Origin: Myxococcota bacterium
Lineage (GTDB): Bacteria > Myxococcota_A > UBA9160 > SZUA-336
Length of the DNA stretch: 64,000 bases
Reading direction: 5' to 3'
Assembly (NCBI GenBank): GCA_035499075.1
Contig: DATJZN010000056.1
Location: 96,894-160,893 of the forward strand
The translations under genes were made by a program, and so were the position numbers. The notes below the pieces were generated by a model. The model had not been told where the DNA came from, searched no databases, and saw nothing but the letters and a program-made list of their open reading frames with translations. Of the stretch, positions 4,766-43,403 are shown one piece after another (position 1 is the stretch's first letter; each line of letters begins with the position of its first letter).

Positions 4766-4810
4766 CTCGACTCACTTGCCGGCGGCGACGCGCCGGGGTA
4801 CACCGGCTCC

Positions 4811-5782: not shown

Positions 5783-5807
5783 CAGCGACGCGCTGCTCCG
5801 TGCGCGT

Positions 5808-6212: not shown

Positions 6213-6217
6213 CAACC

Positions 6218-7486: not shown

Positions 7487-7513
7487 GCGAAGAACCGCTC
7501 CGCGACGCGCCGG

Positions 7514-9225: not shown

Positions 9226-9281
9226 GGCGGGATCGTAGGAGACCGCCGACCGGCTGCGCCAGTCGTGCGAGAATCCTGCGC

Positions 9282-11907: not shown

Positions 11908-11909
11908 CG

Positions 11910-13714: not shown

Positions 13715-13904
13715 GGCGAAGTCTCCTGAAACGCCGAACGCCCTTCCGGGAGGTCCGGAAGGGCGTTCGGCGAAAACCGAGATGTGCCCTTCCGGCTACA
13801 CGACGAGGATCTCCATCGCGGCCGCGAACGGGGCCGTCGACTTCGTCGTGCAGCAGTGAGTCGGGTGGGGCATCGGGAGCCGAGAATCTCGCGGCACGTC
13901 GTGA

Positions 13905-15380: not shown

Positions 15381-15386
15381 CTCGCG

Positions 15387-16109: not shown

Positions 16110-16399
16110 GCGCTCTCGCGCTTGCGCAGCACGAGGTTGCGCGCGTAGACGAAGAAGCCCATGGACTGGCCCAGCGTGAACACGACGTCCCTACGCCAAA
16201 GTGCGTAGGCCAGGAGCAGCGCCGAGCCCAGGATCGACAGGTACCAGAACGCGCCGGGCACCACGCTGCGGCCCGCGCGCTCGGACTCGATCCACTGCAC
16301 CAGGAACCGCGCCGAGAACACGAGCTGGCCCACGAAGCCCACGATCACCCAGGGATGGCTCGCGCCCTCGATCATTTCGTTGATCAGCGTGTTGAACAT
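16106..16399 (-). CDS. lipid-A-disaccharide synthase N-terminal domain (LAB_N) small membrane protein
   Basis: 97 aa, three TM segments, WVIVGFVGQLVFSARFLVQW motif; stop overlaps GT2 start (ATGA). Confidence 0.7.
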   Translation of the reverse strand: MFNTLINEMIEGASHPWVIVGFVGQLVFSARFLVQWIESERAGRSVVPGAFWYLSILGSALLLAYALWRRDVVFTLGQSMGFFVYARNLVLRKRESA

Positions 16400-16420
16400 C
16401 GCTCCCCCTACCCCCCGGGC

Positions 16421-17272: not shown

Positions 17273-17302
17273 TCCCGCGGGGGGCGCGCAGAGTAACGAA
17301 TC

Positions 17303-18424: not shown

Positions 18425-19365
18425 GCGGCATGCTCCGCCGGCACGTGCTGCGTGGCGGCCACGAAGACGTCTTCGAGGCTCGCGCGCGCGAGCGACACGC
18501 GGCCGGCCACGTGCGCTCGCTCGAGCGCGTGCGCGAGCGCAGCCGCGGGATCGGCGAGGCTGCGGTCGACCAGCGCGTGCAGGCGCGCGCCGAGCTGCGC
18601 GACGCTCTTCACCGCGGGCAGGCGCTCGAGCACGGCGCGCGCGGCGTGCGCCTCGGCGCCTTCGATCTCGACGACGGAGGCGTCGATGTCGCGCATGAGC
18701 CGTTCGGGCGCGCCGCTCGCCACCACGCGCCCGCGGTCGAGGATCGCGAGCCCGTGGCAGCGCTCGGCCTCGTCCATGAAGTGCGTCGACACGAGGATCG
18801 TGGTGCCGTGCTCGACCAGCCGGTAGAGCGTCTCCCAGAAGTCGCGCCGGCTCTGCGGATCCACGGCGCTCGTCGGCTCGTCCAGGAACAAGAGCTCGGG
18901 CTTGTGCAGGGTCGCGGCGGCCAGCGCGAGCCGCTGGCGCTCCCCGCCCGACAGCGTGCCGGAGCGCTGACCGCGCAGCTCGCGCAAGTGGAAGTCGCCG
19001 AGCAGCTGCTCGATGCGCGCGCGCGCGGCGGCGCGCGGCAGCGAGTAGATCTCGGCCATGAACGCCAGGTTCTCGTCGACGGAGAGGTCCTCGTACAGCG
19101 AGAAGCGCTGCGTCATGTAGCCGATCTTGCGGCGCAACGGCTCGGCGTCGCGCGGCACCTCGAGCCCGAGCACCGTGGCCGAGCCCGCAGACGGCGTGAG
19201 CAGCCCGCACAGCATGCGGATGGTCGTCGACTTGCCGCTGCCGTTCGGGCCGAGGAAGCCGTAGATGGCGCGGCGCGGGATCTCGAGGTCGACGCCGTCG
19301 ACGGCGGTGGTCTTGCCGAAGCGCCGCGTGAGCCCGCGCGTGCGGATCGCGAGCTCTTCCGTCAT
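18421..19365 (-). CDS. ABC transporter ATP-binding protein
   Basis: Walker A GPNGSGKST, signature LSGGERQRLALAAA, Walker B LFLDEPTSAVD, H-loop VSTH. Confidence 0.9.
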   Translation of the reverse strand: MTEELAIRTRGLTRRFGKTTAVDGVDLEIPRRAIYGFLGPNGSGKSTTIRMLCGLLTPSAGSATVLGLEVPRDAEPLRRKIGYMTQRFSLYEDLSVDENLAFMAEIYSLPRAAARARIEQLLGDFHLRELRGQRSGTLSGGERQRLALAAATLHKPELLFLDEPTSAVDPQSRRDFWETLYRLVEHGTTILVSTHFMDEAERCHGLAILDRGRVVASGAPERLMRDIDASVVEIEGAEAHAARAVLERLPAVKSVAQLGARLHALVDRSLADPAAALAHALERAHVAGRVSLARASLEDVFVAATQHVPAEHAA

Positions 19366-26464: not shown

Positions 26465-27310
26465 CTAGCTCGCGTAGTGCGGCGAAGACGCCTTCATGAA
26501 GCGCAAGAGCATCCGCAGACTCGCGATCGCGCGACCGGCGGAATCCTCGGCCGTGGAGTCGAACCACAGGTACTCGGTCTTCGGGCCCTGGCCCACGGCG
26601 GCGACGCGGCCCGTCACGGTGTAGGTCTCGTCCAGGCGGATCGGGCCGGCGGCGTGCGCGACCTCGATCGCGCCGAACAGGCCGACCGCCCGCCCCGTGT
26701 GCTCGCGCAGCACGCGCGTCGGCGGGGCCCAGAGCAGCTCGACCGCGGCCGAGGGCGCGGCGATCGGGCCGCCCCACGGCGATGCACCCGTGTACCAGTC
26801 GAGCGGGCCGCTGCACAGCCCGCGCGCGATGCGCTCCGCCTGGCGCTCCGGCCCGAGCCGCACCTTGGACGAGCCGAGCTCCGCGCCGGGCGCGAGCGCC
26901 CGCAGGATGCGCAGCTCGCGCGGGTCGCCGCCGCGCAGGTCGCGCGTGTGCAGCTCGGAGCGCGACGCGTCGCCCAGCGACGCCGTGCCCTCGCACACGT
27001 CCATGCCGTCCTCGCGCTTCATGTAGACACGGATCTGTGTCGCATCGGGTGCGGGCTCTTCGGCGTAGGCGCGCACCTTCTCGCGGTCGACCGTCGCGTT
27101 CAGGAAGTAGAGCGACAGCGCGCCCGTCTCGAAGAAGCGCGGTCCGAAGGCGCGCAAGAGCAGCGGCGGGAACTGGTCCATGTGGACGCTGCCCGCCACG
27201 GTGCCGCCGCGGAAGCCGAGCTTCGTCGCCGTCGCGTCGTCGTGGATGCTGCCCGCCTGCTCGGCCGCGCCGTTGCGCGCGGCGCGGAGCTCGCTCTCGA
27301 TCGTCGCCAT
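26465..27310 (-). CDS. hypothetical protein (possible hotdog-fold-like protein)
   Basis: 281-codon ORF from second ATG (MATIESEL); no confident motif; start chosen to avoid overlap with divergent neighbour. Confidence 0.4.
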   Translation of the reverse strand: MATIESELRAARNGAAEQAGSIHDDATATKLGFRGGTVAGSVHMDQFPPLLLRAFGPRFFETGALSLYFLNATVDREKVRAYAEEPAPDATQIRVYMKREDGMDVCEGTASLGDASRSELHTRDLRGGDPRELRILRALAPGAELGSSKVRLGPERQAERIARGLCSGPLDWYTGASPWGGPIAAPSAAVELLWAPPTRVLREHTGRAVGLFGAIEVAHAAGPIRLDETYTVTGRVAAVGQGPKTEYLWFDSTAEDSAGRAIASLRMLLRFMKASSPHYAS

Positions 27311-27347
27311 GGGCCGATTGTACGCCCGCCGCGGTAGACTCGGGGCC

Positions 27348-28535
27348 ATGGAGAAGCTCCCCTACCCGGCCTTCGATTGCGACAACCACTACTACGAGGC
27401 GCTGGACGCGTTCACCCGGCACCTGGACCCGCGGCTCGGCTCGCGCTGCATCCAGTGGGCCGAGATCGGCGGGCGCCGCTACCACGTGGTCGCGGGGAAG
27501 GTCTCCCATGCCGTGGCGAACCCGACTTTCGACCCGATTGCGAAGCCGGGCGCGATGCACGAGTACTTCCGCGGCAACCCTAACAAGAAGTCGCCCATCG
27601 AGTTCCTGCGCGAGCGCGAGCCGATCCCGGCCGCGTACCGCGACCGCGACGCGCGGCTCGACGCCATGGACCGCCAGGGCCTCGAGGCGGTGTGGCTGTT
27701 CCCGACGCTCGGCGTGCTGTACGAGGAGCTCTTGAAGCACGACACGGAAGCCGTGGGCATCGCGTTCCGCGCGTTCAACCGCTGGCTCGACGAGGACTGG
27801 GGCGTCGCCTACCGCGGGCGGATCTTCGCGGCGCCCTACATTCCGATGTGTAGCCCCGAGATCGCGATCCGCGAGCTCGACTGGTCGCTCGAGCGCGGCG
27901 CACGCGTGGTGTGCATGCGGCCCGCGCCCGCGTGGACCTCGGCGGGGCCCCGCTCGCCCGGCGACGCGCTGTTCGACGGCTTCTGGGCGCGCGTGAACGA
28001 AGCGGGCGTCACGGTGGTCGTGCACGCCGGCGACAGCGGCTACAGCACGAACGGCTACGCGCGCGACGGCTTCGGCGCCACGTTCGAGCCCGGCGGCTGG
28101 AAGCCGACGATCAAGGCCTTCAACATCGAGCGCGCCGCACACGACTTCCTGATCACGCTCGTGTTCGAGAAGCTCTTCGACCGCTTCCCGAACCTGCGCA
28201 TCGCGTCGGTCGAGAACGGCTCCGACTACCTGGCCGACCTGTTCAAGAAGCTGCGCTCCACCGCCAAGAAGATGCCCGGCTACTTCAAGGAAGACCCCGT
28301 CGCCACGTTCAAGCGCCACGTCTGGATCAACCCGTTCTGGGAGGACGACGTGAACGAGATCACCGAGCTCATGGGTGCCGAGCGCGTGATCTTCGGCTCG
28401 GACTGGCCGCACATCGAGGGCATGCCGCAGCCGCTCGACTACGTGGACGAGCTCGCGAAGTTCGACGCGCCCGCGAAGCAGCGCATCTTGCGCGACAACA
28501 CGCGCGAGCTCAACGAGCTCCGCCCCACGGCTTGA
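27348..28535 (+). CDS. amidohydrolase family 2 metal-dependent hydrolase
   Basis: Amidohydro_2-like blocks FDCDNHYYE, VVVHAGDSGY, FGSDWPH; 395 aa. Confidence 0.8.
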   Translation: MEKLPYPAFDCDNHYYEALDAFTRHLDPRLGSRCIQWAEIGGRRYHVVAGKVSHAVANPTFDPIAKPGAMHEYFRGNPNKKSPIEFLREREPIPAAYRDRDARLDAMDRQGLEAVWLFPTLGVLYEELLKHDTEAVGIAFRAFNRWLDEDWGVAYRGRIFAAPYIPMCSPEIAIRELDWSLERGARVVCMRPAPAWTSAGPRSPGDALFDGFWARVNEAGVTVVVHAGDSGYSTNGYARDGFGATFEPGGWKPTIKAFNIERAAHDFLITLVFEKLFDRFPNLRIASVENGSDYLADLFKKLRSTAKKMPGYFKEDPVATFKRHVWINPFWEDDVNEITELMGAERVIFGSDWPHIEGMPQPLDYVDELAKFDAPAKQRILRDNTRELNELRPTA

Positions 28536-29275
28536 CCCGGGCGCTGCGGGCAGGCGCCCTCGCGGCCGCAGCGCTCGGCCTGTCGGGCTGCCTGCTCTTC
28601 CTGCCGATGCCGTCGCGCAAGTCGCCCGAACAGTCGCAGGCGAACCTGTTGCCCATGCCCGCGCCGCAGCCGCACCGGCCGCCGGGCCGCAGCGAGGACC
28701 AGCTCACGTCCGAGGTCAACGCGCTGGGCGACCGCATCGGCGGCTATCCGCCGCACTTCCAGAGCGAGGTCGAGCGCCAGGACGCCTACGACCGCTGGAG
28801 CGACCTGTTGCTCGACGCGCAGGCGCTGCCGTGGAGCACCGCGGGCGAGGCGACGCGCCTGGGTCTGCTCGGCGAGCTGTACCGCCAGGGCTTCGACATG
28901 GACGTGGCGAGCGCCGGCTCGCTCGCCGAAGCGACCCTGCTGCAGTGCATCGACCTGCACCCGCGCGCGATCAACTGCAACTGGTCGCTCGTGTTCCTCT
29001 ATCTGTCAGTGACTCCGAGCGACGAACGGCTGAAGCAGGTGCGCTTCAGCCTGGACGTGCTGCGCCAGGAGCTCGGCCCTGCGCCGAACGAGGAGGTCGA
29101 GTACTACTCCGCGCTGTTGCGCGCGTTCAACGGCGACGTCGACGGCGCCCGCCGCCAGATCGACGCGTACTTCAAGGACTTCCCCCAGGGGCCGCACTCC
29201 GACGACCTGCACAAGCTCAGCTCCGAGATCGACGAGGCCGAGAGCAAGAGGAAGAAGGAGGCGAGCGCGCCGTGA
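28532..29275 (+). CDS. lipoprotein, function unknown
   Basis: TTG start overlapping upstream stop (TTGA); signal plus lipobox LGLSGC; helical, Lys-rich C-terminus. Confidence 0.55.
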   Translation: MTRALRAGALAAAALGLSGCLLFLPMPSRKSPEQSQANLLPMPAPQPHRPPGRSEDQLTSEVNALGDRIGGYPPHFQSEVERQDAYDRWSDLLLDAQALPWSTAGEATRLGLLGELYRQGFDMDVASAGSLAEATLLQCIDLHPRAINCNWSLVFLYLSVTPSDERLKQVRFSLDVLRQELGPAPNEEVEYYSALLRAFNGDVDGARRQIDAYFKDFPQGPHSDDLHKLSSEIDEAESKRKKEASAP

Positions 29276-29754
29276 GCGCGCCCGAGCGCCGGCCGCAGCT
29301 CTACGGCATCGGCACGTCGGTCTACGCGGAGCGCGCAGGCGAGATCCTGGTCTTGAAACGCGCGGGCGGCGCCGCGCTGGGCGCCTGGTATACACCAGGC
29401 GGTGTACTCGACCCGGGCGAGACGCCGGCCGAGTGCGCGCGCCGCGAGCTCTTCGAGGAGACTGGCCTCGCGCCGAGCGGGCCGCTGCGCCTGGTGAGCC
29501 TGGTGCCCATGCACGTCTACGGCGCCGACGGCTTCATCGCCGCCTTCGCGTGCGCTTGCGACGCCGGCGAGGTCCAGCTCAGCCCGGAGCACTCGGCGGC
29601 GCGGTGGATCGACCCGCGCGAGTACCGCGACCGCTACTTCGCGCCGGAGGGCCTCGCGAAGCTGCGCGCCGCCGAGCCGCGCATCGCCGAGATGGCCGCG
29701 GCCGTGCGGCGCTCGCTCGACGAGTATCTCGACTGGAAGGCCGGGCGCGCCTAG
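29272..29754 (+). CDS. NUDIX hydrolase
   Basis: Nudix box GGVLDPGETPAECARRELFEETGL; GTG start overlapping upstream stop (GTGA). Confidence 0.8.
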   Translation: MSAPERRPQLYGIGTSVYAERAGEILVLKRAGGAALGAWYTPGGVLDPGETPAECARRELFEETGLAPSGPLRLVSLVPMHVYGADGFIAAFACACDAGEVQLSPEHSAARWIDPREYRDRYFAPEGLAKLRAAEPRIAEMAAAVRRSLDEYLDWKAGRA

Positions 29755-32700
29755 GAGGCCGGCCGCAGCTCGGCGAGGCGCGCCACCGCGCGCTCGCCGT
29801 CGTCGAGCTCGAAGAACTCGATGCGCTCGACCCGCCCGGCGTCGGTGGTCATCAGCACCAGGTGGGTCCCCTCGAACTCGCCGCCGTGCGCGAGCGTGCC
29901 GGAGACCTGCACCACGCTCACGACTCCGTACGGCTCGAGCGCCAGGCGGAACGGCGTGTCCACCTGCACCGCGGACGCCAGCTCGGCCAGCACCCGGACG
30001 CTGTCTGCGTAGGCCGGTCCCGCCAGCGCGCCGAGCCGCACCACCCGGCGATGGTCCTCGAGCACGAAGCCGTCCGCGAGGATCGCGCGCGCCCGCGCGC
30101 CGTCGCGCGCGTTGAAGGCGTCGTTCAGCTCGATGCCGGGCCGGAGCACCGCCGCGGCGAGCGGGTCGCGCGCGCACAGACCGTCGCGCAGCTCGCGCAG
30201 CGCGCGCGACCGCTCGGCGGGCGCGAACTCGCGGAGGACCGCGATGCGGCCCGCCGCGTCGAGCTCGACGAGCCAGAGTGACTCGCCCCCGGAACCTCGC
30301 ACGAGCTCGAGTGCGGACTGCGCGTCGGCGGAGCCGACGATCGCACGAGTGACTCGTGCGCCGGTGGCCGCGCAGCGGCCGAGCGCAGCGAGCGCACGCT
30401 CGATTTCGGCGCCGCCGGCGCAGAGTGCCCGCGCGCCGGCTCCGTCGCCCGAGCCGAGCGCGGCGAAGAGCCGGTCCAGCGCAGCCGTCGCGGAGTTCGG
30501 CGCGGCGAACGGCGCGAGCCGCTCGGGTGCGCGAGCGAACGCGCCGAAGCACTCGCGGGCGCGCTCGAGCTGGTCGAGCTCGAACAGGTCGATCGACACG
30601 AGCCGCGCGCCGTCGTGGCGAGTCGCGCGCACGAACACGCGCTCGAACGCCCCGCCGTCGCGCAGCCGCCCGAAGCTGCGCGTGACGGCCAGCTCGCCCC
30701 GCTCGTCGGCGGCCAGCTCGTACAGCGACTCGGCCGCGGCGTCGGGCGACTCGGCGAACAGCGCCGCGAGCGCCGCCACGTAGGCTGCGGCGCCCTCGAG
30801 CCGGCCGAGACCCGTGCGGCGGTGGTCGTCGAAGACGAAGTCGCCGCGCAGCGCGCCGCGCACGCGCTCGAGGTCGCGCGCGTTGAAGATGCGGCGGAAC
30901 TCGCGCATCGGCGATGGATCGGCGCGCTCGAGCAGCTCCGCGCTCGCGGCGCGCCGGTCGTCCGGATCGAAGTGCAGCACGGCGCGCAGCCGGCCCTGCG
31001 CATCGAGCTCGACGAGGCGCAGGAACTCGCCCTCGAACGCGCCTGCGCCCGCGCCGCCGCGGTAGCGGAAGCGCTCGAGCGCGAGGCGCTGGCCGCTCGT
31101 CGCGAGCAGCTCGCGGCCCCGGGCGATCTCGCCCAGCGACGCCATGAACGACAGGTTGCGCACGTACACCTCGACGTCGCCGCGCACGAGCGCGCCCTTG
31201 CGCCGATCGTCGAACTCGAAGTCGGGAGTCACGAGCGCGCGCAGCGCGTCCCAGTCGCCCGCCACCACGAGCGGGCCCAGTCGCTCCTGGTCGGCGCGCG
31301 CCGCGGCGTTCGGCGGCACGCGCAGCGGGTCCGACCGGAGCTCGGCGAAGCGCGCGCGCGCCTCGTCGAGCTGGTCGAGCTCGTACGCGTCCCAGCGGCG
31401 GATCCGGCCGTCCGCTGCCAGCGCGAACAGGTTCGCACCTGCGATCTCGAAGCGACCGCCGGCGCGCGTGCCCTCCCAGCGGCCGACGTTCAAGATGCCG
31501 CGCCCGTCCAGCGCGAGCACGTGGTCGGCGCGCGACCGCGCATCCGGCGCCAGCTCGAAGAGCGCGCGCAGCCGCGCGAGATACTCGTCGCGAGAGTGCA
31601 GCGTGCCGAAGCCCATGCGCCGGTGGTCCTCGAACACGAGGTCGTGCGAGAAGACCGACGCGAGCCCGTCCCAGTCGCGCGCCGACATCGCGCGCTCGAG
31701 CCGGCGCAGCGCCTCGCGCGCCGCCGGAAACGGCGCGGCCTCGCCCGCTTCGTAGCGGCGCTCGAGCTCGGCGTACACCTCCTCCAGGGCGTCGGGATCG
31801 AAGCGAACCAACGCGATCCGGTCGCCGCGCTCGTCGACCTCGACCAGGGCGAGCTGTTCCGTCTCGCTCGGGCCGATGGTCTCGCTGCGGCCGCTGTAGA
31901 CGAGCCGCGCCACGCACAACCGCTCCCCGCGGGTGGCGAGCACGTGGCTCTCGAGGTGTGCGACGATCGCGTCGTACAGCTCGCGCATGTAGGCCAGATG
32001 CTCCTCGCGGCTCAGGTCCAGCTGCATGAGGCGGCGGCGGTCGAGACTGCGGAAGCCGGGGGCGTACAGCGCGACGCACGCGTCCCAGTCGCGGTCGTTC
32101 CACGCCGAGCCGAAGCGGTCGAGCGAGCGCGTCGCGGCGTTCTCGATCCGTGGACCGGGCGCGGCCGCGAGCGACGCAGCTCCGTGGGCGGCGAAACGCG
32201 CCTCGAGCGCGGCATGCGCGGCATCGCGCGCTTCCAGGTCGAACACGTCGAGCGCGATGCGCCGCCCCTCGCCGTCGACCTCGACCAGGTCCAGCATCTC
32301 GACGGCCAGCGGCCCGGCGCCGGCTTCCGCGCGCGCTCCGAACCGGACCCGCAGCAGCGCCAGGTGTTCGCCGCGCGCCGCGACGAGCGCGCTCGACCAT
32401 TCGCTGTCCGAGGTCTCGAACAAGAGCCGCTCGTTCGCAAAGAAGGCGTCGCCGCGCACCTGCACGCGGAACAGCGCACGGTGGTCGTTCATGACGTGAC
32501 TCGGCGCGTAGCTCGCGACCACCGCGTCCCAGTCGCGTGCGCGCCAGGCGCGCTCCGAGCGAGTCACCGCGCGCGCCGCCGCGTTCGCGCGCTCCGAGGC
32601 CGGCGCGGGCTCGGCGCGCGAGTCCACCGTTTCGGCAGCGCGAAAGACCGCGAGCGCCGGCCGCGCGCGCGTCGCGCGTTCGGCGAGCAGGCTCGCGCCC

Positions 32701-35700
32701 TTCGCCTCCCACAGCTCGATCGCGCGCGCGTCCTCGGCGTCGGCCTCGGCGCTGCGGCCGGCTGCGCGCAGCGCGACGGCGAGCGCGCGCCGCGCGTTCG
32801 CGTGCTGGAGCAGCGCATCGGTGGCGGCGGCGATCTCGACGGCTGCGCGCGCGAGCTCGATCGCGGCCGCGTGCTCGCCGCGCCGCGCGAGCGCCTCGGC
32901 GCGCACGCCGCGCCAGGCGATCGCGGCGTTGAGGTCGTCGCCGGCGAGCCGCTCGCTCTCCTGGCTCAGCACCTCGGCGCCGATCGCGTCGCCCTGCGCG
33001 AGGCGCGCGCGCGCCAGCAGCGCGGCCGCCCGCGCCGCGTCGATGCCGAGCCCGTGCTCGCGCAGCCCCTCGTACGCGACCGAGAGACAGCGCGCCGCGG
33101 CCTCGGCGTCGCCCTGCAGGAGCTCGATGTAGCCCGCGAAGAACTCGACTTCGAGGAGCTGCGCCTCGAGCCCGAGCTCCTCGACGGTGCGCCGCGCGGC
33201 CGCGATCATGCGCCGCGCCGCCTCGACGCGCCCGCGCAGCGCTTCGAGCACCGCCTGACACCGAAGTGCGACGGCCTCGACCGCGGGCGCCCCCTGCGTG
33301 ATTCGCAGCACGCGCACGACGTCGAGACAGCGGCCGCTCGCGCGCGCGACCGGACTCGGGCCGTACAGCGCGGCGACCGGGGCCCCGGCCAGGACGCCGT
33401 TCGCACGGCGGCGGTCGCGCGCGCGCCGCGCCGCCGCGAGCGCGCGGTCGAGCGCCGCTTCGGATGCGCCGAGCCGGCCCAGGCGCGCCAGCGCGGTGGC
33501 GTGAACGGAGTGCGCCTTGGCCTCGCCCGCGGCATCGCCCGCCGCCGCGAGCGCCGCTGCGGCCGCCGCCGCCGACTCCGCGGAGGCGCGCAGCGACTCG
33601 GGGTGGGTGAGCACGGCGAGCTCCGCCGCGAAGCACGCGTGCCACGCGCACAGGCGCTCCGAGCGCGGCGCGAAACGCGCGAGCTCCTCCACCGCCCGGC
33701 TCGCGAGCCCGACTTCGCCCGCGGCGAGCAGCGCCTCGCACCAATCGAGCGCGAGGTCGGCGCGCGCCGGGTCGGCGGCGTCGAGACACTCGAGCGCGCG
33801 CCCGACGAGGTCGGCCGCGAGCCGCAGCTCGTCGCGAGCCAGCGCCATGCGCCCTGCCGCGCCCAGGTGGCGCGCCGCGCGCCCGCCGACCGCTGCGCCG
33901 TGGGCGTCGAGCGGTCCGAGCTCGCGCAGATGCCGGTGTGCCTGCTCCAGGTGCCAGCCGATCGGCTCCTCGTGCTCGGGTGCCCCATCCGCCTGCGCGG
34001 CGATCCAGTCCGCCAGCCGCTCGTGCAGCTCTGCGCGCGTGCGGCGCAGCACGCGGCGGTAGGCGGCGTCGCGGATCAGCGCGTGGTGGAAGCGCAGGCC
34101 GGGCTCGCCGAGAAACCAGCCGCTGTCCGGCTCGATCAGCTCGGTGCGGCGCAGCGACTCGAGCTTGGCGTCGAGCTCGGCGGGATCGCGCTGCAGCAGG
34201 TGTGCGACCGCGGCGCGCGAGAACCTGCGCCCGACGACCGCCGCGCGCTCGAGGAGCGCGCGCTCGTCGGGGCCCAGGCGCTCGATGCGCGCCGCGAGCA
34301 GTGCGTGGATGGTCGGCGGCATCTCGAGCCGCGCGAGCTCGACGCCGGCGACCCAGCGGTCGCCGTCGCGCCGCAGCGCTCCGTCGTGGACGAGCATGCG
34401 CACGAGCTCGCCCACGAAGAGGGGGTTGCCCTCGCTCGCCGCGAGCACGCGCCCGACCAGCGCGGCGGGCAGCTCCTCGGCGCCGACCGCGTTGGCGGCG
34501 AGCCGCGCGGCCGCGCTCGCCTCCAGCCCGGAGAGCATCACCACCTCGGTCACTACACCGCCTGGTGTCGCCAGCGACGAGCGCAGCTCGCGGAGCTCGG
34601 GGCGCGAGCCGAGCAGGACGAGGAGAGGCACGCCGCTCGACCACTCCACCAGGTGCTCGGCCAGGTCGAGGAGCAGAGGCTCGGCCCACTGCACGTCGTC
34701 GATGACCAGCACGACGGGCCGCGCCGCGGCCAGCGCCGCGAGCAGCCGCCGCACCACGAAGAACGTCTCCTCGGGCGAGGCGGGCGCGCCGGCCAGCAGC
34801 GCGGCGAGCCCGGTCGCCAGCCGCGCGCGCTCCGACTCCGCGCCGGGCACGACCGCGTCGACCGCCGCGCGGATCGCCTCGGGCTCGTCCGCGTCGCCGA
34901 GTCCGAGCCGCTCGCGCAGCACCGCGGCGATGGGCGCGAAGCTGCGGCCACGCGACGGATCGCAGCGCGCCGACAGCACGACCGCGCGGTCGCCCACGCG
35001 CCGCGCGAGCTCGGCCAGCAGGCGCGACTTGCCGAGCCCGGGCGAGCCGAGCAGCACGGCCAGGCGCGCACCGGGCGCGGCGACCGCGGCTTCGAACACG
35101 GCGCGCAGCCGGCGCAGCTCGTCTTCGCGCCCCACGAATGCCGTGCCCTGCCCGACGGCGGGCGGGTCCAGCGAGACCACGCGATAGGCCGCCACCGGCT
35201 CCACGCGGCCGCGCAGCGCGAACGTGCCGAGCGGCTCGAGCGTCAGCTTGCCCGCGACCAGCCGCTGCGTGGCCTCGCCGAGCACCACGTCGCCGTCGCG
35301 CGCCTCCTGCTGCAGGCGCGCCGCGACGTTCGCCGGGTCGCCGATCACGCTGGTCTGATCCTCGGCGACGATCACCTCGCCCGTGTTCACCGCGATGCGC
35401 AGGCCCGCCGCACCGACCGCGGCCGCCTGCTCGCCCAGCAGCTCGCGGAACGCGGCCTGCATGGCGACCGCCGCGCGCACGCCGCGCACGGCGTCGTCTT
35501 CAGCGACGCGCGGCACGCCGAACGCGCACAGCACGCCGTCCCCGAGCAGCTGCACGACGGTGCCGCCGTGCGCGCGCACCACGGCCGCCATCGCGTCGTG
35601 GTACCGCGCCATGAAGCGGCGCGCGCTCTCGGCGTCGAGCCGCTCGTGCAACGCGACCGAGCCGACCAGATCGGCGAAGACGATGGTGACCACCTTCCGC

Positions 35701-35882
35701 GCCGTGGTCTCGACCGGCGCCGACGCCGTCGCGGCGAGCGCCGCTCCGCACGCGTCGCAGAACCTCGCGTCGGCGGCGTTCTCTGCGCCGCAGCTGGGAC
35801 AGCGCGGCGCGAGCGACTGGCCGCAGCCGCTGCAGAAGCGCGCCCCGGCGCGGTTGGCCCGGCCGCAGCTCGCGCAAGTCAT
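29751..35882 (-). CDS. multidomain signalling protein: double zinc ribbon + class III adenylate/guanylate cyclase + STAND/AAA NTPase + TPR-like region + seven tandem NTF2/SnoaL-like domains
   Basis: Residues 3-45: four CxxC pairs. Cyclase catalytic motifs KVVTIVFADLVGS and LLGDGVLCAFG. Walker A LLGSPGLGKSRLL, Walker B VLVIDDVQWAE. Ala-rich helical TPR-like stretch about residues 600-1060. Seven about-130-aa repeats each opening with a ...RDWDA..A..Y/F...D..F.DHRR... motif. Single uninterrupted 2043-codon frame. Confidence 0.8.
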   Translation of the reverse strand: MTCASCGRANRAGARFCSGCGQSLAPRCPSCGAENAADARFCDACGAALAATASAPVETTARKVVTIVFADLVGSVALHERLDAESARRFMARYHDAMAAVVRAHGGTVVQLLGDGVLCAFGVPRVAEDDAVRGVRAAVAMQAAFRELLGEQAAAVGAAGLRIAVNTGEVIVAEDQTSVIGDPANVAARLQQEARDGDVVLGEATQRLVAGKLTLEPLGTFALRGRVEPVAAYRVVSLDPPAVGQGTAFVGREDELRRLRAVFEAAVAAPGARLAVLLGSPGLGKSRLLAELARRVGDRAVVLSARCDPSRGRSFAPIAAVLRERLGLGDADEPEAIRAAVDAVVPGAESERARLATGLAALLAGAPASPEETFFVVRRLLAALAAARPVVLVIDDVQWAEPLLLDLAEHLVEWSSGVPLLVLLGSRPELRELRSSLATPGGVVTEVVMLSGLEASAAARLAANAVGAEELPAALVGRVLAASEGNPLFVGELVRMLVHDGALRRDGDRWVAGVELARLEMPPTIHALLAARIERLGPDERALLERAAVVGRRFSRAAVAHLLQRDPAELDAKLESLRRTELIEPDSGWFLGEPGLRFHHALIRDAAYRRVLRRTRAELHERLADWIAAQADGAPEHEEPIGWHLEQAHRHLRELGPLDAHGAAVGGRAARHLGAAGRMALARDELRLAADLVGRALECLDAADPARADLALDWCEALLAAGEVGLASRAVEELARFAPRSERLCAWHACFAAELAVLTHPESLRASAESAAAAAAALAAAGDAAGEAKAHSVHATALARLGRLGASEAALDRALAAARRARDRRRANGVLAGAPVAALYGPSPVARASGRCLDVVRVLRITQGAPAVEAVALRCQAVLEALRGRVEAARRMIAAARRTVEELGLEAQLLEVEFFAGYIELLQGDAEAAARCLSVAYEGLREHGLGIDAARAAALLARARLAQGDAIGAEVLSQESERLAGDDLNAAIAWRGVRAEALARRGEHAAAIELARAAVEIAAATDALLQHANARRALAVALRAAGRSAEADAEDARAIELWEAKGASLLAERATRARPALAVFRAAETVDSRAEPAPASERANAAARAVTRSERAWRARDWDAVVASYAPSHVMNDHRALFRVQVRGDAFFANERLLFETSDSEWSSALVAARGEHLALLRVRFGARAEAGAGPLAVEMLDLVEVDGEGRRIALDVFDLEARDAAHAALEARFAAHGAASLAAAPGPRIENAATRSLDRFGSAWNDRDWDACVALYAPGFRSLDRRRLMQLDLSREEHLAYMRELYDAIVAHLESHVLATRGERLCVARLVYSGRSETIGPSETEQLALVEVDERGDRIALVRFDPDALEEVYAELERRYEAGEAAPFPAAREALRRLERAMSARDWDGLASVFSHDLVFEDHRRMGFGTLHSRDEYLARLRALFELAPDARSRADHVLALDGRGILNVGRWEGTRAGGRFEIAGANLFALAADGRIRRWDAYELDQLDEARARFAELRSDPLRVPPNAAARADQERLGPLVVAGDWDALRALVTPDFEFDDRRKGALVRGDVEVYVRNLSFMASLGEIARGRELLATSGQRLALERFRYRGGAGAGAFEGEFLRLVELDAQGRLRAVLHFDPDDRRAASAELLERADPSPMREFRRIFNARDLERVRGALRGDFVFDDHRRTGLGRLEGAAAYVAALAALFAESPDAAAESLYELAADERGELAVTRSFGRLRDGGAFERVFVRATRHDGARLVSIDLFELDQLERARECFGAFARAPERLAPFAAPNSATAALDRLFAALGSGDGAGARALCAGGAEIERALAALGRCAATGARVTRAIVGSADAQSALELVRGSGGESLWLVELDAAGRIAVLREFAPAERSRALRELRDGLCARDPLAAAVLRPGIELNDAFNARDGARARAILADGFVLEDHRRVVRLGALAGPAYADSVRVLAELASAVQVDTPFRLALEPYGVVSVVQVSGTLAHGGEFEGTHLVLMTTDAGRVERIEFFELDDGERAVARLAELRPAS
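29754..32590 (-). repeat. intragenic tandem array of seven diverged about-390-bp units encoding NTF2/SnoaL-like domains (C-terminal half of the 2043-codon gene)
   Basis: Protein-level periodicity: RARDWDAVVASYAPSHV / DRDWDACVALYAPGF / ARDWDGLASVFSHDLVFEDHRR / AGDWDALRALVTPDFEFDDRR / ARDLERVRGALRGDFVFDDHRR / degenerate unit 6 / ARDGARARAILADGFVLEDHRR, each ending in a ...VELDxxGRI...FDxD strand motif. Confidence 0.6.
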
Positions 35883-35885
35883 AGG

Positions 35886-35921
35886 TCCGAGGGTCGCATG
35901 GGCACCCTACCCATGCTCGGA
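35886..35921. promoter_or_regulatory. imperfect nested palindrome immediately upstream of the cyclase-STAND gene start
   Basis: TCCGAG-ggtcg-CATGGG-cacccta-CCCATG-c-TCGGA lies 4-40 nt upstream of the ATG at 35882; no downstream T-run, so not a canonical terminator. Confidence 0.25.
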
Positions 35922-35950
35922 TGGTCGCACGGGCCTGCGCGCTCCGCGCG

Positions 35951-37678
35951 CTACGCGGCCGCCCCGTGTCGCAGCAGCTTGCCCGGCGTCGCGCCGGTGC
36001 ACTTGCCGTCTTCGAAGGTGAGCTCGCCGTTCACGAGCGTCCAGCGGTAGCCCTCGGCGCGCTGGATGCGGCGCCACTCGCCCGCCGGGAAGTCGTGCGC
36101 GATCTCGGAGTCCCACCAGTCGGGCACGCGGCGCAGCTTGGCGAGCTCGTAGACGACCACGTCCGCGGGCCAACCCTCGAGCAGCGCCCCGCGGTCGCGG
36201 AAGCCGGCGGCGCGCGCGGGCAGGTAGGACAGCTTGTAGTGCGCTTCCTCCAGCGTCATGCGCTTCTCGTCGCGCACCAGCCAAGCCAGCGTGTCGGTGG
36301 TGTACGAGCCCGAGGTCAGGAACTTGGTGTGCGCACCGCCGTCGGAGACGCCCGGGATGACGTAAGGAGAGGCGAGCAGCTCGCCCACGAACTCGGAGTT
36401 GTCGCTGGTCGCGCTCTTGGTGAGGAAGCCCGCGGTGAGGTCGCTCGCGAGCGAGAGCCGCACGGCGGCCTCGACTGGATGCACCCCGAGCTCCGCGGCG
36501 ACCTCGCCCACCGTCCGGCCGATCCAGCGGTCGAGCTCGGGCGCGTTCTTCGCGCCCTCGAACACGTGCCCCGCGATCGGGCCGCCGAGGATCGGCGTCT
36601 GCAACATGCCCGCGTCGGCTTCGGCGGCCATCGCGCGCACGAGCTCCGGATCGGCGAGCTTCGCGAGCTTCTCCTGGTGCGTGCCGGTGAGCGCCCGGTT
36701 CCAGGCCGGGCTCGAGTCGAACAGGTTCCAGTCCTCGAAGGTGAAGCGGAACGGCGCGCGGATCGAGTTCGCCTGGCCGAACATGGGAATGCCCCGCGCG
36801 TGGCAGCTCTCGAGCCACCGGACGAACATGCGGTGCACCCAGGGCAGCTCGTTCACGGCGAGCACCACGTTGAACAAGACCGGACGCCCCGCCGCGACCG
36901 CCACGTCCTCGCACAGCTTCAAGTCTTTCTCGAGCTCGCCCGTCGCGTTGGTGAGCTGGATGAAGCCCTCGCCGCGCCGCCCGAGCGCGCGCGCGAAGGC
37001 GAGCAGATCGCCCTCGCTCATGGTGTCGGTGACCATCGGCGTGCCGTCGAAGTCGGCCTGGATCGAGTGCGCGCCCGTCCGCTGCGCCGACCAGCCCAGC
37101 GCACCGGCGCTCATCGACTCGTCGAGCAGCGCGAGCATCCGCGCCATCTCGGCCTCGGTCGCGGGCCGGCGCTTCGCGTTCTCGAGGCCCATCGCGTAGG
37201 TCATGAGCGGCGCGAGCGGCAGGTAGGAGAGGCAGTTCACTCCCTTCGGGATGCGCTCGAGCGTCGACAGCCACTCGGGGAAGCTCTCCCAGTCCCAGAG
37301 CATGCCGGCGCGCATCGACGCCAGCGGGATGGCCTCGAGCCGCGACATGGAGAGCATCGCGCGCTCGCGCTCGGCCGGGCGCACCGGCGCGAAGCCGAAG
37401 CCGCAGTTGCCCAGCGCGACCGAGGTCACGCCGTGCCAGCCGGAGATCGTGCACCACGGGTCCCACTGGATCTGCGCGTCGTAGTGCGTGTGCAGGTCGA
37501 CGAAGCCGGGTGCGACGACCAGGCCGTCGGCGTCGAGCACGCGCGCGGCGTTCGACTTCGCGATCCGCCCGATCCGGGCGATGCGGCCGCCGCGAATGCC
37601 GACGTCGGCACGGAACGCGGGGAAGCGCGTGCCGTCGACGACGGTCCCCCCGGAGATGACGAGGTCGAACTCCGCCAC
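35951..37678 (-). CDS. N-acyl-D-amino-acid deacylase family amidohydrolase (D-aminoacylase)
   Basis: MAEFDLVISGGTVVDGT, GFVDLHTHYD metal-binding motif; size 575 aa typical of D-aminoacylases. Confidence 0.85.
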   Translation of the reverse strand: MAEFDLVISGGTVVDGTRFPAFRADVGIRGGRIARIGRIAKSNAARVLDADGLVVAPGFVDLHTHYDAQIQWDPWCTISGWHGVTSVALGNCGFGFAPVRPAERERAMLSMSRLEAIPLASMRAGMLWDWESFPEWLSTLERIPKGVNCLSYLPLAPLMTYAMGLENAKRRPATEAEMARMLALLDESMSAGALGWSAQRTGAHSIQADFDGTPMVTDTMSEGDLLAFARALGRRGEGFIQLTNATGELEKDLKLCEDVAVAAGRPVLFNVVLAVNELPWVHRMFVRWLESCHARGIPMFGQANSIRAPFRFTFEDWNLFDSSPAWNRALTGTHQEKLAKLADPELVRAMAAEADAGMLQTPILGGPIAGHVFEGAKNAPELDRWIGRTVGEVAAELGVHPVEAAVRLSLASDLTAGFLTKSATSDNSEFVGELLASPYVIPGVSDGGAHTKFLTSGSYTTDTLAWLVRDEKRMTLEEAHYKLSYLPARAAGFRDRGALLEGWPADVVVYELAKLRRVPDWWDSEIAHDFPAGEWRRIQRAEGYRWTLVNGELTFEDGKCTGATPGKLLRHGAAA

Positions 37679-40652: not shown

Positions 40653-41810
40653 GTGTCGGCGTTCCTGACGGCGCTCGCGCTGGCCGCCTGGCTGTACCTG
40701 GTGTTCGCCCGCGGACGCTTCTGGACGGCCGAGGTGCGCCTGGACGGGCGCGCGCGCGAGCCGGCGCGCTGGCCGGACGTGGTGGCGGTCGTCCCGGCGC
40801 GCGACGAGGCCGCGCTCCTGCCGCGCACCCTGCCCGCGCTGCTGGGCCAGGAGTACGCGGGCCAGCTGCGCATCGTCCTGGTCGACGACGAGAGCGCGGA
40901 CGGGACCGCCGACGCCGCGCGCGCGGCGGCGCGGGCGCACCCGAACGGCGCACGGCTCGAGGTGGTGCGCACGTCCGCGCGGCCGGGCGGCTGGGTCGGC
41001 AAGATGTGGGCGGTCGAGACCGGCGTATCCACGGCGCAGGCGGCAGATGCGCCGACCTGGTGGTGGCTCACCGACGCCGACGTGCTGCACGCGCCCGACA
41101 CGCTGGCGCGGCTCGTGGCGAAGGGCGAGAGCGAGCGCCTCGACCTGGTCTCGCTCATGGTGAAGCTCGACCGCGGCATGGGCTGGAACGCGCTGCTCGT
41201 GCCCGCGTTCGTGTACTTCTTCCAGCAGCTCTACCCGTTCCCGCTGGTGAACGACCCGGGCTCGCGCGTGGCGGCCGCGGCGGGCGGCTGCGTGCTGGTG
41301 CGCGCCGACGCGCTCGCGCGCGCGGGCGGGATCCCGGCGCTGCGCGGCGAGGTGATCGACGACTGCGCGCTGGGCCGCGCGGTGAAGGCCCAGGGCGCGA
41401 TCTGGCTCGGCCTCGCGGACCGCGAGGAGTCCGTGCGTCCCTACGACAGCGTCGACGACGTGTGGAACATGGTGGCGCGCAGCGCCTACACACAACTGCG
41501 TCACTCGCCGCTCTTGCTGGCGGGCACGCTCGCCGGACTCGCCCTGCTCTACGCGGTGCCGCCGCTCGGCGCGCTGGCGTGGGGGTTCGGCGGCGGCGAC
41601 GCCACGGGCGTGTTCGGCGCGTCGGCGTGGCTGCTGCAGGCGGCGTCGTTCGTGCCGACGCTCGCGCTGTACAAGCGCTCGCCCTGGCTGGCGCTCGCGC
41701 TGCCCGCTGCGGGCGCGTTCTACGCGGCCATGACCTTCGACTCCGCCCAGCGGCACTGGCGCGACCAGGGCGCCACGTGGAAGGGCCGCACGGGCGCGGG
41801 CGCCGACTAG
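40653..41810 (+). CDS. membrane-anchored glycosyltransferase family 2 (HpnB-like)
   Basis: GTG start; N-terminal TM, GT2 motifs VVAVVPARDEA, VLVDDESADGT, and C-terminal multi-TM tail as in HpnB-type GTs. Confidence 0.7.
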   Translation: MSAFLTALALAAWLYLVFARGRFWTAEVRLDGRAREPARWPDVVAVVPARDEAALLPRTLPALLGQEYAGQLRIVLVDDESADGTADAARAAARAHPNGARLEVVRTSARPGGWVGKMWAVETGVSTAQAADAPTWWWLTDADVLHAPDTLARLVAKGESERLDLVSLMVKLDRGMGWNALLVPAFVYFFQQLYPFPLVNDPGSRVAAAAGGCVLVRADALARAGGIPALRGEVIDDCALGRAVKAQGAIWLGLADREESVRPYDSVDDVWNMVARSAYTQLRHSPLLLAGTLAGLALLYAVPPLGALAWGFGGGDATGVFGASAWLLQAASFVPTLALYKRSPWLALALPAAGAFYAAMTFDSAQRHWRDQGATWKGRTGAGAD

Positions 41811-43054
41811 CCCAGCGCTTCCCGCCGGTCCTGCAGGAAGCGCTGTACCGCCGCGTCGCGCTCGAGGCCCAGCGCGAGCGAGTAGGCGCGCCGCGCCTCG
41901 TCGCGCGCGCCGGTGCGCGCCAGGAGCTGCGCGCGCGCCGCCCAGTACGGCTGGTACTCGACGAGCCGGCGGTCGGCCCCGATCTCGTCGAGCGCCAGGA
42001 GCGCGGCCTCGGGGCCCTTCACCTCGCCGAGCGCGACCGCGCGATTCAGCGCGACCACCGGCGAGCCGGACAGCGCGAGCAGCGCGTCGTACAGCGCGAG
42101 CACCTCCGCCCAGTTCGCGACTCCCGCGCGGCGCCGGTGCACGTGCGCCGACTGCAGCGCGGCCTCGAGCTGATAGCGGCCGATCGCGCCGTGCGCGCTC
42201 GCCGCGTGGAGCAGCGCCTCGGCCTCGTCGATCAGCGCCGCGTCCCAGCGCGCGGGGTCCTGCGCATCGAGCGGCACGTACTCGCCGTTCGCGTCGCGGC
42301 GCGCGGCGCGGCGCGCCTCCGCGTAGAGCATCATCGCGAGCAGGCCGAGCGCCTCGGGCTCGCCGGGCAGGAGCTCGACGACGAGCCGCCCCAGATCGAT
42401 GCCCTCGTCGGCCAGCTCGCGCCGCGCGACGTCGGCGCCGGCCGCATCGGCCCAGCCCTCCGCGAACGCGGCATAGATCGCCTCGAGCACCGCCTCGAGG
42501 CGCGCCGCGAGCTCGGCGCGCTCGGGCACGCGCAGCGGAATTCCGGCGCGGCGGATCTTCTGCTTCGCGCGCACGAGCCGCTGGCCCATCGCCGCGGGCG
42601 CCACCAGGAACGCCGACGCGATCGCCGCCGCGTCGAGCCCGACGACGACCTGCAGCATGAGCGGCGCGCGGATGCCCGCATCGAGCGCCGGGTGCGCGCA
42701 CGCGAACATGAGCGCGAGCCGCTCGTCGGGGATCTCGGGCGCATCGGGCGCCCGGTCGAGCTCGTCGCCGAGCCGCAGGATCTGCGCGGCCACCGCTTCG
42801 CCGCGCGCGCGCTTGCGCGACACGTCGACGAGCTTGCGGCGCGCGACCGTGAGCAGCCACGCCTCGGGCCGCGCGGGGCAGCCGTGCTTGGGCCAGTCGG
42901 CCAGCGCCGAGGCGAACGCTTCGCTGAGCGCGTCCTCGGCGCCGGCCAAATCGCGCGTGTGCGCGGCGAGCAGCGCGACGAGCTTGCCGTAGCTGCGCCG
43001 CGCGGCCGCTTCCGCAGCGACTCGCGCTTCGACAGCGCGAGCGTCGGAAGTCAC
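41807..43054 (-). CDS. RNA polymerase sigma-70 factor, ECF subfamily, with long C-terminal TPR-like extension (DUF6596-type)
   Basis: sigma2 region AEDALSEAFASALADW...PEAWLLTVARRKLVD; sigma4 IASAFLVAPAAMGQRLVRAKQKIR; about 280-aa helical C-terminal extension; GTG start (ORF also open to 43102). Confidence 0.7.
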   Translation of the reverse strand: MTSDARAVEARVAAEAAARRSYGKLVALLAAHTRDLAGAEDALSEAFASALADWPKHGCPARPEAWLLTVARRKLVDVSRKRARGEAVAAQILRLGDELDRAPDAPEIPDERLALMFACAHPALDAGIRAPLMLQVVVGLDAAAIASAFLVAPAAMGQRLVRAKQKIRRAGIPLRVPERAELAARLEAVLEAIYAAFAEGWADAAGADVARRELADEGIDLGRLVVELLPGEPEALGLLAMMLYAEARRAARRDANGEYVPLDAQDPARWDAALIDEAEALLHAASAHGAIGRYQLEAALQSAHVHRRRAGVANWAEVLALYDALLALSGSPVVALNRAVALGEVKGPEAALLALDEIGADRRLVEYQPYWAARAQLLARTGARDEARRAYSLALGLERDAAVQRFLQDRREALG

Positions 43055-43055
43055 C

Positions 43056-43403
43056 TCACATCGCCCAGATCGGCCGCACTTCGATGACGCCGCCCTGCGC
43101 ACCCGGACAGCGCGCCGCCCACGAAAGCGCGGCGTCCAGGTCCGGCACGTCGATCAGGAAGTAGCCGCCGAGCTGCTCCTTCGTGTCGGCGTACGGGCCG
43201 TTCAGCACCTGCGTCTTGCCGTCGGCCACGCGCACGGTCGTCGCGGTGTGCGTCGGCTGCAGGCGCGCGGAGCCGGCGTCCGCCCCCGCTTTCTTGATGG
43301 CGTCCGCGTACGCGAGGTATGCCTCGGTCGTGCGCTTGATCACGTCGGGCGGCCGCTGCGCGTAGGCCTTCTCGTCGGAATAGATCATGAGCAGGTATTG
43401 CAT
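43056..43403 (-). CDS. YciI-like (DGPF domain) protein, sigma-factor-associated
   Basis: MQYLLMIYSDE...GGYFLIDVPDLDAALSWAARCP hallmark of the YCII/DGPF family; immediately upstream of the ECF sigma gene. Confidence 0.75.
   Translation of the reverse strand: MQYLLMIYSDEKAYAQRPPDVIKRTTEAYLAYADAIKKAGADAGSARLQPTHTATTVRVADGKTQVLNGPYADTKEQLGGYFLIDVPDLDAALSWAARCPGAQGGVIEVRPIWAM

Follow-up and report, generated by a model that had tools for sequence, protein, structure and literature searches.

A single gene occupies positions 29751-35882 of the minus strand in a 64,000-nucleotide stretch of contig DATJZN010000056.1 (positions 96,894 to 160,893 of the forward strand) from the Myxococcota bacterium assembly GCA_035499075.1. 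The whole of this stretch is called the window here, and coordinates are those of the window. The gene encodes one polypeptide in which a double zinc ribbon, a class III nucleotidyl cyclase, an AAA_16/STAND NTPase, a TPR-like helical arm and seven NTF2-like repeats follow one another in that order. An earlier account based on the letters alone (the sequence-only reading) had proposed one uninterrupted frame of 2043 residues, and this was borne out. The open reading frame (ORF) runs from ATG to stop with no internal stop codon, and its G+C content at the three codon positions (0.83/0.54/0.94) is coding-like in a window of about 72% G+C. The start codon is judged to be right because the N-terminus, MTCASCGR, agrees with the consensus of the homologues. 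Long antisense and out-of-frame ORFs overlap the gene (e.g., of 1811 and 1861 residues, including one at 30615-36050 on the plus strand). These shadow ORFs are artefacts of the roughly 77% G+C. The gene is present in one copy in the window, and the database protein P0001 is identical to its product. The features are as follows, with repeat types and classes named as in the description of the array.

29751..35882, minus strand: whole gene, stop codon included, for the 2043-residue cyclase-STAND-NTF2-array protein (uninterrupted ORF, third-position G+C of 0.94, homologues)
35745..35876, minus strand: double zinc ribbon with four CxxC pairs, residues 3-46 (Pfam DZR, E 1.9e-10; Zn_Ribbon_1 twice)
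35163..35702, minus strand: class III nucleotidyl cyclase catalytic domain, residues 61-240 (Pfam Guanylate_cyc; sequence and fold matches in the PDB)
34083..35138, minus strand: STAND NTPase module, residues 249-600, with P-loop nucleotide-binding domain (NBD), helical and winged-helix-like subdomains (AAA_16, Walker motifs, Foldseek)
32613..34082, minus strand: TPR-like all-helical arm, residues 601-1090 (AlphaFold2 (AF2) model)
32181..32585, minus strand: repeat R1, residues 1100-1234, type A, class 'C', an orphan without a B partner (SnoaL_2 E 8e-4 alone; type A 123 vs. B 65)
31743..32150, minus strand: repeat R2, residues 1245-1380, type A, class 'C' (SnoaL_2 E 5.6e-5; type A 153 vs. B 62; confidence above 90 in the AF2 model on the predicted local distance difference test, pLDDT)
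31332..31733, minus strand: repeat R3, residues 1384-1517, type B, class 'D', partner of R2 (SnoaL_2 53.6 bits vs. cutoff 27; type B 157 vs. A 84)
30921..31316, minus strand: repeat R4, residues 1523-1654, type A, class 'H' (SnoaL_2 E 1.9e-3; type A 135 vs. B 64; in the AF2 model)
30525..30920, minus strand: repeat R5, residues 1655-1786, type B, class 'E', partner of R4 (SnoaL_2 E 1.2e-5; type B 119 vs. A 41; in the AF2 model)
30174..30509, minus strand: repeat R6, residues 1792-1903, shortened type A, G-like class 'Z' (hidden Markov model (HMM) of the family repeat, E 6.6e-5; type A 37 vs. B 10)
29754..30173, minus strand: repeat R7, residues 1904-2043, type B, class 'E', the C-terminal domain (SnoaL_2 E 6.6e-3; type B 108 vs. 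A 59)

Homologues were collected by a full-length protein search that returned 1003 matches at E<=1e-10, and the homologue counts given below use the best 120 of these 1003. The four CxxC pairs that had been noticed near the N-terminus are C3/C6, C17/C20, C28/C31 and C42/C45, and they are recognised by the Pfam model DZR. The eight cysteines are kept in 100-104 of the 120 homologues. The cyclase core, also proposed earlier, was recovered with both of its metal-binding Asp residues. Guanylate_cyc (PF00211) matches residues 62-228 at 53.8 bits against a cutoff of 21.9, and the PDB sequences matched are Cya2 (2w01, 1.5e-21) and CyaB (3r5g). In a Foldseek comparison of the AF2 model, this domain superposed on CyaB, Cya2, Ma1120 and Rv1900c with template modelling (TM) scores of 0.8-0.9. 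Alignment to Cya2 and CyaB places the metal Asp residues at D71 and D115 and the transition-state pair at N185 and R189. These positions are conserved in 118, 119, 118 and 115 of the 120 homologues, respectively.

The substrate of class III cyclases is specified by a pair of residues, which is Lys with Asp or Thr for ATP, and Glu with Cys, Ser or Gly for GTP. The window protein carries the non-canonical pair Gln111/Ser178. Across the 120 homologues the two positions co-vary (K/D in 37, Q/E in 41, Q/A in 20, Q/S in 6, K/E in 6, Q/H in 5 and Q/Q in 4), and some paralogues look, by sequence, like canonical adenylyl cyclases. Since the pair of the window protein is Gln/Ser, its nucleotide product cannot be named from the sequence. 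Integration of ligands into a cAMP or cGMP output, as put forward in the sequence-only reading, would be a tentative proposal. The product may be cAMP made with relaxed specificity or another cyclic nucleotide monophosphate (cNMP), as the pair is not Lys/Asp.

The STAND NTPase and the TPR-like solenoid of the sequence-only reading were likewise recovered. AAA_16 matches residues 249-422 at 80.6 bits (cutoff 32.6), and both the Walker A motif GSPGLGKS (K285) and the Walker B motif VLVIDD (D395/D396) are intact. K285 is present in all 120 homologues, and D395 and D396 in 120 and 119, respectively. The AF2 model of residues 1-1095 has a pLDDT of 84. Its best whole-chain fold match is the archaeal STAND-TPR protein 6mfv (5e-12), followed by Apaf-1 (1z6t/3sfz) and MalT (8bob). 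In the arm, residues 600-1086 form about 25 paired antiparallel helices of about 17 residues each, mostly with pLDDT above 90; the Pfam model TPR_12 reaches only a sub-threshold 17.8 bits at residues 987-1059 (cutoff 30.1). Identity in the arm is very high across the family, with many invariant columns. One stretch, WGPSPV.RASGRCLDVVRVLRITQGAPAVEAVALRCQAVLEALRGR (residues 840-885, window about 33228-33365, minus strand), is near-invariant throughout the family and holds a low-confidence loop at residues 843-852. This stretch may be a contact of the arm with the nucleotide-binding oligomerisation domain (NOD) or with the array.

Seven repeats of 112-140 residues occupy residues 1100-2043. SnoaL_2 (PF12680) matches the whole protein at 91.7 bits (cutoff 27) in five stretches. 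Six of the seven repeats match it singly (E 4e-14 to 7e-3), though only R3 exceeds the gathering score; R1, R2, R4, R5 and R7 alone score 17-26 bits. R3 carries the near-invariant residues D1419-H-R1421, D1447 and G1475-G-x-F-E1479. R6 (112 residues) lacks about 20 internal residues, the D-R-R motif among them; it has no Pfam match and is recognised by the family repeat HMM. An AF2 model of R2-R5 (residues 1245-1786), built from a 31-sequence alignment, has a pLDDT of 93.8 and a predicted TM-score (pTM) of 0.72, and each modelled repeat reads helix-helix-strand-helix-four strands plus a terminal helix. Foldseek returned 617 PDB matches to this model at E<=1e-3, all of them NTF2-like. At the top were the tandem NTF2 enzymes Lsd19 (3rga, 4rzm) and MonBI-MonBII (9kw6, E 3e-14) and the four-repeat iota-carbonic anhydrase (iota-CA; 7c5x, E 7e-11). 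Single-domain matches included ketosteroid isomerase (KSI), SnoaL2, hydrolases like limonene epoxide hydrolase (LEH) and Rv0760c, with TM scores of 0.65-0.78. Thus the earlier proposal of seven NTF2-like repeats was right in number and fold, and wrong in treating the repeats as equal, as there are two types that alternate in the layout A-ABABAB (an orphan A, AB, AB and a truncated A with B).

This alternation was found to be a property of the family. The 120 homologues hold 6-18 repeats per protein, with even values preferred (10 in 13 proteins, 12 in 23, 14 in 26 and 16 in 24). Within a protein, repeat identity is 39% at an offset of two and falls to 24% at larger even offsets, and it is flat at about 22% at every odd offset. 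Type-specific HMMs read a perfect (AB)n, with n = 3-9, in 95 of the 120 proteins. Proteins with n = 3-5 were outside the training set of these HMMs and were still classified. The signature of type A is PNAATRA...ARDWD...F.DRRR...LATxGDRLAL...EVD..GR...FD.DDL..A.AEL..RYA, and that of type B is RDWD...DHRxxGxG...LAPD...GTRxGGxFE...DGR..R.E.FD..QLD.A.ARF.EL. Arrays of the family open with A and close with B, and linkers are shorter after A. In the model of R2-R5, pLDDT is 94-96 across the A-to-B junctions versus 76 at the B-to-A junction. The A-B pair is the structural unit of the array.

The pairs fall into ordered classes. Clustering of the repeats gave about nine large clusters, which combine into four pair classes with a fixed N-to-C order and variable copy number: (BA)n (CD)m ([G/F/K]E)k (HI)0-1, a strict fit in 65 of the 120 proteins. 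Identity is 43-48% inside cassette classes versus 19-38% between them, and each class has its own signature. The best identity of a repeat averages 66% to repeats of other proteins versus 45% within its own protein, which indicates that the repeat subtypes are old. Judged by the alternation, the period-2 signal, the ordered classes and the conserved charged residues, the array is not junk. In cluster labels the window array reads C-CD-HE-ZE and lacks the first-class (BA) cassettes. By this layout, the window protein is a short, reduced and atypical member of its family. The 'heptad' of like domains in the sequence-only reading is therefore better described as an ordered (AB)n array of cassettes in reduced form. 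What is new here is this account of the array as A/B cassette pairs in a set order, together with the co-varying specificity residues.

The two halves of the protein differ in their conservation. Across the family, identity is 63-86% over the N-terminal 1095 residues versus 32-69% over the array, a pattern that fits a conserved engine joined to a more variable sensor. The closest relative, P0002, is 85% identical in a best local alignment that spans 54% of the query. Its array reads ABN-C-CD-H-ZE, and its truncated Z is 62% identical to R6 of the window protein. L007 shares 76-84% identity in the cyclase, NOD and arm and 65% in the zinc ribbons. Its array also has seven repeats, in the non-collinear order ABAAAAB. 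Since this array is non-collinear despite the high N-terminal identity, rearrangement is much faster in the array than in the engine.

The architecture is not rare. The best 120 of the 1003 matches are 1923-3573 residues long, and all carry AAA_16 and SnoaL-type domains; Guanylate_cyc is present in all of them except the N-terminally truncated P0033, and DZR in most. An exhaustive HMMER search with one A-B pair (R2-R3) against 1.84 billion representatives gave 2099 proteins at E<=1e-3; of these, 1299 reached E<=1e-10, and 547, counted as clusters at 50% identity, reached E<=1e-30. Most of these clusters come from Myxococcota-type MAGs. The longest protein among the A-B pair matches listed has 5200 residues. 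Such proteins are automatically named 'nuclear transport factor 2 family protein' by NCBI, in metagenome-assembled genomes (MAGs) of Myxococcota, Deltaproteobacteria, Ca. Binatia and Ca. Eisenbacteria, and 'class 3 adenylate cyclase/ketosteroid isomerase-like protein' by JGI. Among species-representative genomes, relatives with the full architecture were found only in Myxococcota-type MAGs (L003 at 80%, L007 at 78% and L005 at 66% identity), and one MAG has two copies. In L002 the paralogues P0021 and P0019 (2848 and 2847 residues; positions 1363-9909 and 10001-18544) lie head-to-tail with a 31-codon ORF between them. Both carry K/D, the canonical pair for adenylyl cyclases, and their cassette strings are BACJCDGEFEFE and BACJCDFEHIHI. 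In P0092 a SAM domain takes the position of the zinc ribbons, and P0018 has an extra C-terminal GNAT acetyltransferase after the array. Five high-scoring representatives (P0121 and others) consist of SnoaL domains only; they may be contig-end fragments, and there is no evidence among them for other N-terminal modules. No paper describing the architecture was found in a literature search that reached few subscription journals, and neither the eLife 2020 paper on conflict systems nor the survey of the NTF2 superfamily, both covered by it, describes it. The uniqueness implied by the sequence-only reading is not supported, as the best 120 matches share the architecture and the array is present in the 547 clusters. 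The family is common in environmental data and uncharacterised.

More distant relatives point to the origin of the array. Those of L008-L017 (from Actinomycetota, Chloroflexota and Limnocylindria MAGs) match residues 28-1070 only, at 34-43% identity. They share the cyclase-NOD-arm module of the window protein and differ from it by the absent array and by a Lys/Leu specificity pair. All are complete ORFs of 1062-1126 residues that end after the helical arm. Because such complete proteins exist, the N-terminal module is regarded as a self-sufficient STAND unit, and the array as an addition to a complete cyclase-STAND-TPR protein. The sequence-only reading had noted that a DNA-binding output is absent and had suggested that the array replaces a LuxR helix-turn-helix (HTH). 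The absence holds, with no HTH, LuxR or GerE domain in the Pfam or NCBIfam output at E<=1. The replacement does not in this lineage, as the nearest array-less relatives stop after the arm, and the array is therefore an accretion.

Several known systems share parts of this design. The mycobacterial Rv0386/Rv1358/Rv2488c-type proteins (MalT/LAL-clade STAND) have, like the window protein, an N-terminal class III cyclase, an AAA_16-type STAND NTPase and a TPR-like arm, and the Rv0386 type also has Gln at the substrate-specifying Lys position. Unlike them, the window protein has no LuxR/GerE HTH and adds the N-terminal double zinc ribbon and an NTF2-like array of about 950 residues. Its second specificity residue is Ser rather than the Asn of Rv0386, and its lineage is Myxococcota-type rather than Actinomycetota. 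Rv0386 reportedly carries the pair Gln/Asn (Castro et al. 2005) and is an adenylyl cyclase of relaxed specificity. It is described as a functional adenylyl cyclase and as a source of cAMP in vivo (PMC10745434). The PH0952-type STAND-TPR protein 6mfv, MalT (8bob) and Apaf-1 (1z6t/3sfz) have the same NBD-helical-winged-helix NOD with a repeat sensor arm. They differ in their effectors (HTH, CARD), have neither cyclase nor NTF2 array, and reach whole-chain TM scores of just 0.2-0.3, which reflects a different domain arrangement and conformation. The TOMM system kinase/cyclase fusion model (TIGR03903) was rejected, as it scored 223.9 bits against a cutoff of 705.75, matched over profile positions 284-1059 (cyclase-NOD) only and without a kinase. 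At least two NTF2-like cones per chain, as here, are found in the polyether epoxide hydrolases Lsd19 and MonBI-MonBII and in the iota-CA LCIP63, and repeated NTF2-like domains have been documented for iota-CA (PMC8425729). These are enzymes of 2-4 domains without signalling modules, whereas the family described here has 6-19 or more in an A/B grammar. SnoaL_2 also occurs in signalling proteins. The ECF56 sigma factors (extracytoplasmic function (ECF) type, e.g., SigG1 and SigJ) carry a C-terminal SnoaL_2 as a regulatory appendage and not as an enzyme (PMC7730460), but as a single domain and without a STAND cyclase.

The conserved residues of the repeats were compared with known NTF2-like pockets by searching the type-A and type-B profiles against PDB sequences. 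The best match of type A was MonBI-MonBII (4e-8), and those of type B were the uncharacterised NTF2-like protein 3ec9 (5.5e-7) and IdmH; SigJ (5xe7) was a weak match. These alignments, and weaker ones to KSI, pair the Asp of the motif F.D[H/R]R (profile position 36) with KSI Asp38 and the Asp of the MonB 'ED' motif. This position, at the end of strand 1, is the canonical catalytic/pocket site. In type B, D36, H37, R38 and E96 are conserved at 79-95% (H37 79%, R38 95%, E96 94%). The conserved Asp and the charged residues of type B favour a functional pocket. Class 'B' cassettes lack the pocket Asp and have HPTG instead. When KSI Tyr14/Asp38/Asp99, the LEH Asp-Arg-Asp and SnoaL Asp121 were compared, only the Asp38 equivalent was alignable.

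Taken with moderate confidence, the window protein would be a cytoplasmic, STAND-gated cyclase with the NTF2 array as its sensory or regulatory module. Behind this proposal stand computed results on the domain content and folds, on the conservation of catalytic and P-loop residues, and on how the array is organised and conserved. If STAND biology is a guide, the C-terminal arm and the array would keep the NOD closed in the resting state. A signal sensed by the array and arm would then lead to nucleotide exchange and ATP-dependent oligomerisation of the NOD, by which the N-terminal cyclase domains would be juxtaposed and cNMP synthesis turned on. As class III cyclases must dimerise to be active, their active sites lying at the interface, proximity would serve as the switch. 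The zinc ribbons probably aid self-association or partner binding, and the gene for the cNMP receptor would lie at another place in the genome. Small molecules, one or several, that occupy the NTF2 cones are the most plausible signal; a macromolecule bound along the array is a possible alternative. Several observations weigh against this proposal. The Gln/Ser pair is non-canonical and occurs in only 6 of the 120 family members. The arrays of the window protein, P0002 and L007 depart from (AB)n and include a truncated repeat, so they might be partly vestigial. The pocket placement of D36, H37, R38 and E96 was made by alignment at modest E-values (0.02-0.1 for KSI, 4e-8 for MonB). Furthermore, up to 19 domains exceed the need of any known small-molecule sensor, which favours a scaffold or macromolecule-binding role.

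Such a role is the core of an alternative that we regard as rather unlikely, namely that the array is mainly architectural. A-B pairs would stack as a rigid rod or platform for spacing, localisation, oligomer geometry or partner recruitment, and the arm would do the sensing. This would account for the short linkers (0-11 residues), the high pLDDT over the A-to-B junctions with a pTM of 0.72 for four domains, the strong preference for even numbers with an ordered grammar, and the many conserved positions that are Gly, Ala, Leu or Phe. The completeness of the array-less relatives and the class 'B' cassettes without a pocket Asp agree with it as well. A mere rod would not be expected to keep buried-type residues such as D36, H37, R38 and E96 in type B, with Asp at the canonical pocket position, or to maintain class-specific signatures over long divergence, and NTF2-like domains in signalling usually bind ligands (PMC3924330). 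Catalysis in the cones is a much more doubtful explanation. The NTF2 domains would then be enzymes of the SnoaL, LEH, MonB/Lsd19 or iota-CA type that couple multi-step chemistry to cNMP signalling. The best fold matches are indeed tandem NTF2 enzymes, and the type-A profile matches MonB with a conserved Asp at the catalytic position. However, sequence identity to these enzymes is only 10-16%, two-domain superpositions reach a TM of 0.4 with different packing, and the gene is not surrounded by a biosynthetic gene cluster. The other catalytic residues of KSI, SnoaL and LEH could not be identified, and six to nineteen copies per protein are implausible for catalysis. Sequence identity, packing and gene context together led us to reject an enzyme like iota-CA or Lsd19.

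A conflict sensor of the NLR/Avs-like kind was judged unlikely, in agreement with the sequence-only reading, which had placed an Avs-like function second. In such a system the array would recognise an invader or non-self protein, the STAND module would oligomerise, and a cNMP alarm would activate an effector encoded at another locus, as in Pycsar. The STAND architecture with an N-terminal effector-type enzyme is suggestive of this, as are the match of the cyclase domain to PycC models (E 3e-11) and the paralogues in tandem and in multiple copies per genome. Cassette number and order differ between close relatives, as with the window protein and L007, whose N-terminal modules are about 80% identical and whose arrays are non-collinear. 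Conflict systems have also been reported to be enriched in Myxococcota-type lineages (PMC7159879). Against this, PADLOC gave PycC matches at the level of the cyclase domain only and none at the level of the STAND protein or of a system. No effector, cNMP-binding, defence or mobile gene was found among 10 neighbours, which are metabolic and not conserved across loci. The A-B pair had no match in 50,697 phage and 72,556 plasmid records, and the repeat subtypes are old and shared rather than recently diversified. No support for a defence role was thus found. That the window copy is a decaying, non-functional paralogue is very improbable. It does belong to the second-shortest array class, with 7 repeats (seven or fewer occur in only 4 of the 120), it has an orphan A and a truncated R6 and no first-class (BA) cassettes, and its Q/S pair is uncommon. 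But the 6.1-kb ORF is intact with a coding third-position signature, all catalytic and P-loop residues are kept, and selection is implied by P0002, which has kept the reduced layout with the truncated repeat (62-72% repeat identity).

The STAND-gated cyclase may also be viewed at the level of the family. One speculative and rather improbable extension is that the family is a new class of STAND (NLR-like) receptors. An ordered array of up to about 19 NTF2-like pockets in four A-B cassette classes would read a combination of ligands, or a polymeric or foreign ligand, and the cyclic nucleotide would differ between paralogues; this would be an undescribed sensory or immune system of Myxococcota-type bacteria. 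To our knowledge, the signals sensed by cyclase-STAND proteins are essentially unknown even for the mycobacterial examples, although these proteins are widespread. An array of NTF2-like cones is an unusually legible sensor, since the pockets of this fold lend themselves to experimental searches for ligands. Should the cones prove to bind ligands, the family would open a way to the natural signals behind the gating of a STAND switch. From the co-variation of the specificity residues, different paralogues may produce different cyclic nucleotides. With 6-19 domains, compared to 2-4 in Lsd19/MonB and iota-CA, this is the largest tandem NTF2-like array found here. The window protein itself is of lower significance, as one reduced member of a family present hundreds of times in public databases.

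The gene lies among ordinary metabolic genes of the chromosome, and its neighbours are not shared from locus to locus; it is therefore regarded as a stand-alone sensor gene. An Amidohydro_3 gene (35951-37678, minus strand) lies upstream on the same strand, 68 nt off, and could be co-transcribed with it. A second, different amidohydrolase flanks the locus (Amidohydro_2, 27180-28535, plus strand). Further neighbours are an SbmA/BacA-type ABC transporter, an alcohol dehydrogenase (ADH), a nitronate monooxygenase, a family 2 glycosyltransferase (GT2) and an ECF sigma factor. In a comparison of the window with seven other loci, matches between neighbours were almost all to antisense shadow ORFs inside giant genes. 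The neighbourhoods of P0002, P0019/P0021 and L007 are unrelated to that of the window, and synteny tests with L007 and P0002 were negative. The only shared neighbour is the ECF sigma factor (Sigma70_r2 and DUF6596; 41807-43102, minus strand), 6 kb from the gene. Its homologue in L007 (24067-25380) is 47% identical and lies 8 kb from the related gene, and the sharing is probably coincidental. No sigma-70-like promoter was found for the gene, and terminator-like sites were not in excess. At the 3' end, a NUDIX hydrolase gene (29272-29754, plus strand) converges on the gene with a coding overlap of 4 nt at the stop codons (29751-29754). A terminator-like hairpin (29262-29284, minus strand) falls within the beginning of the NUDIX coding range, some 470 nt downstream from where the large ORF stops.

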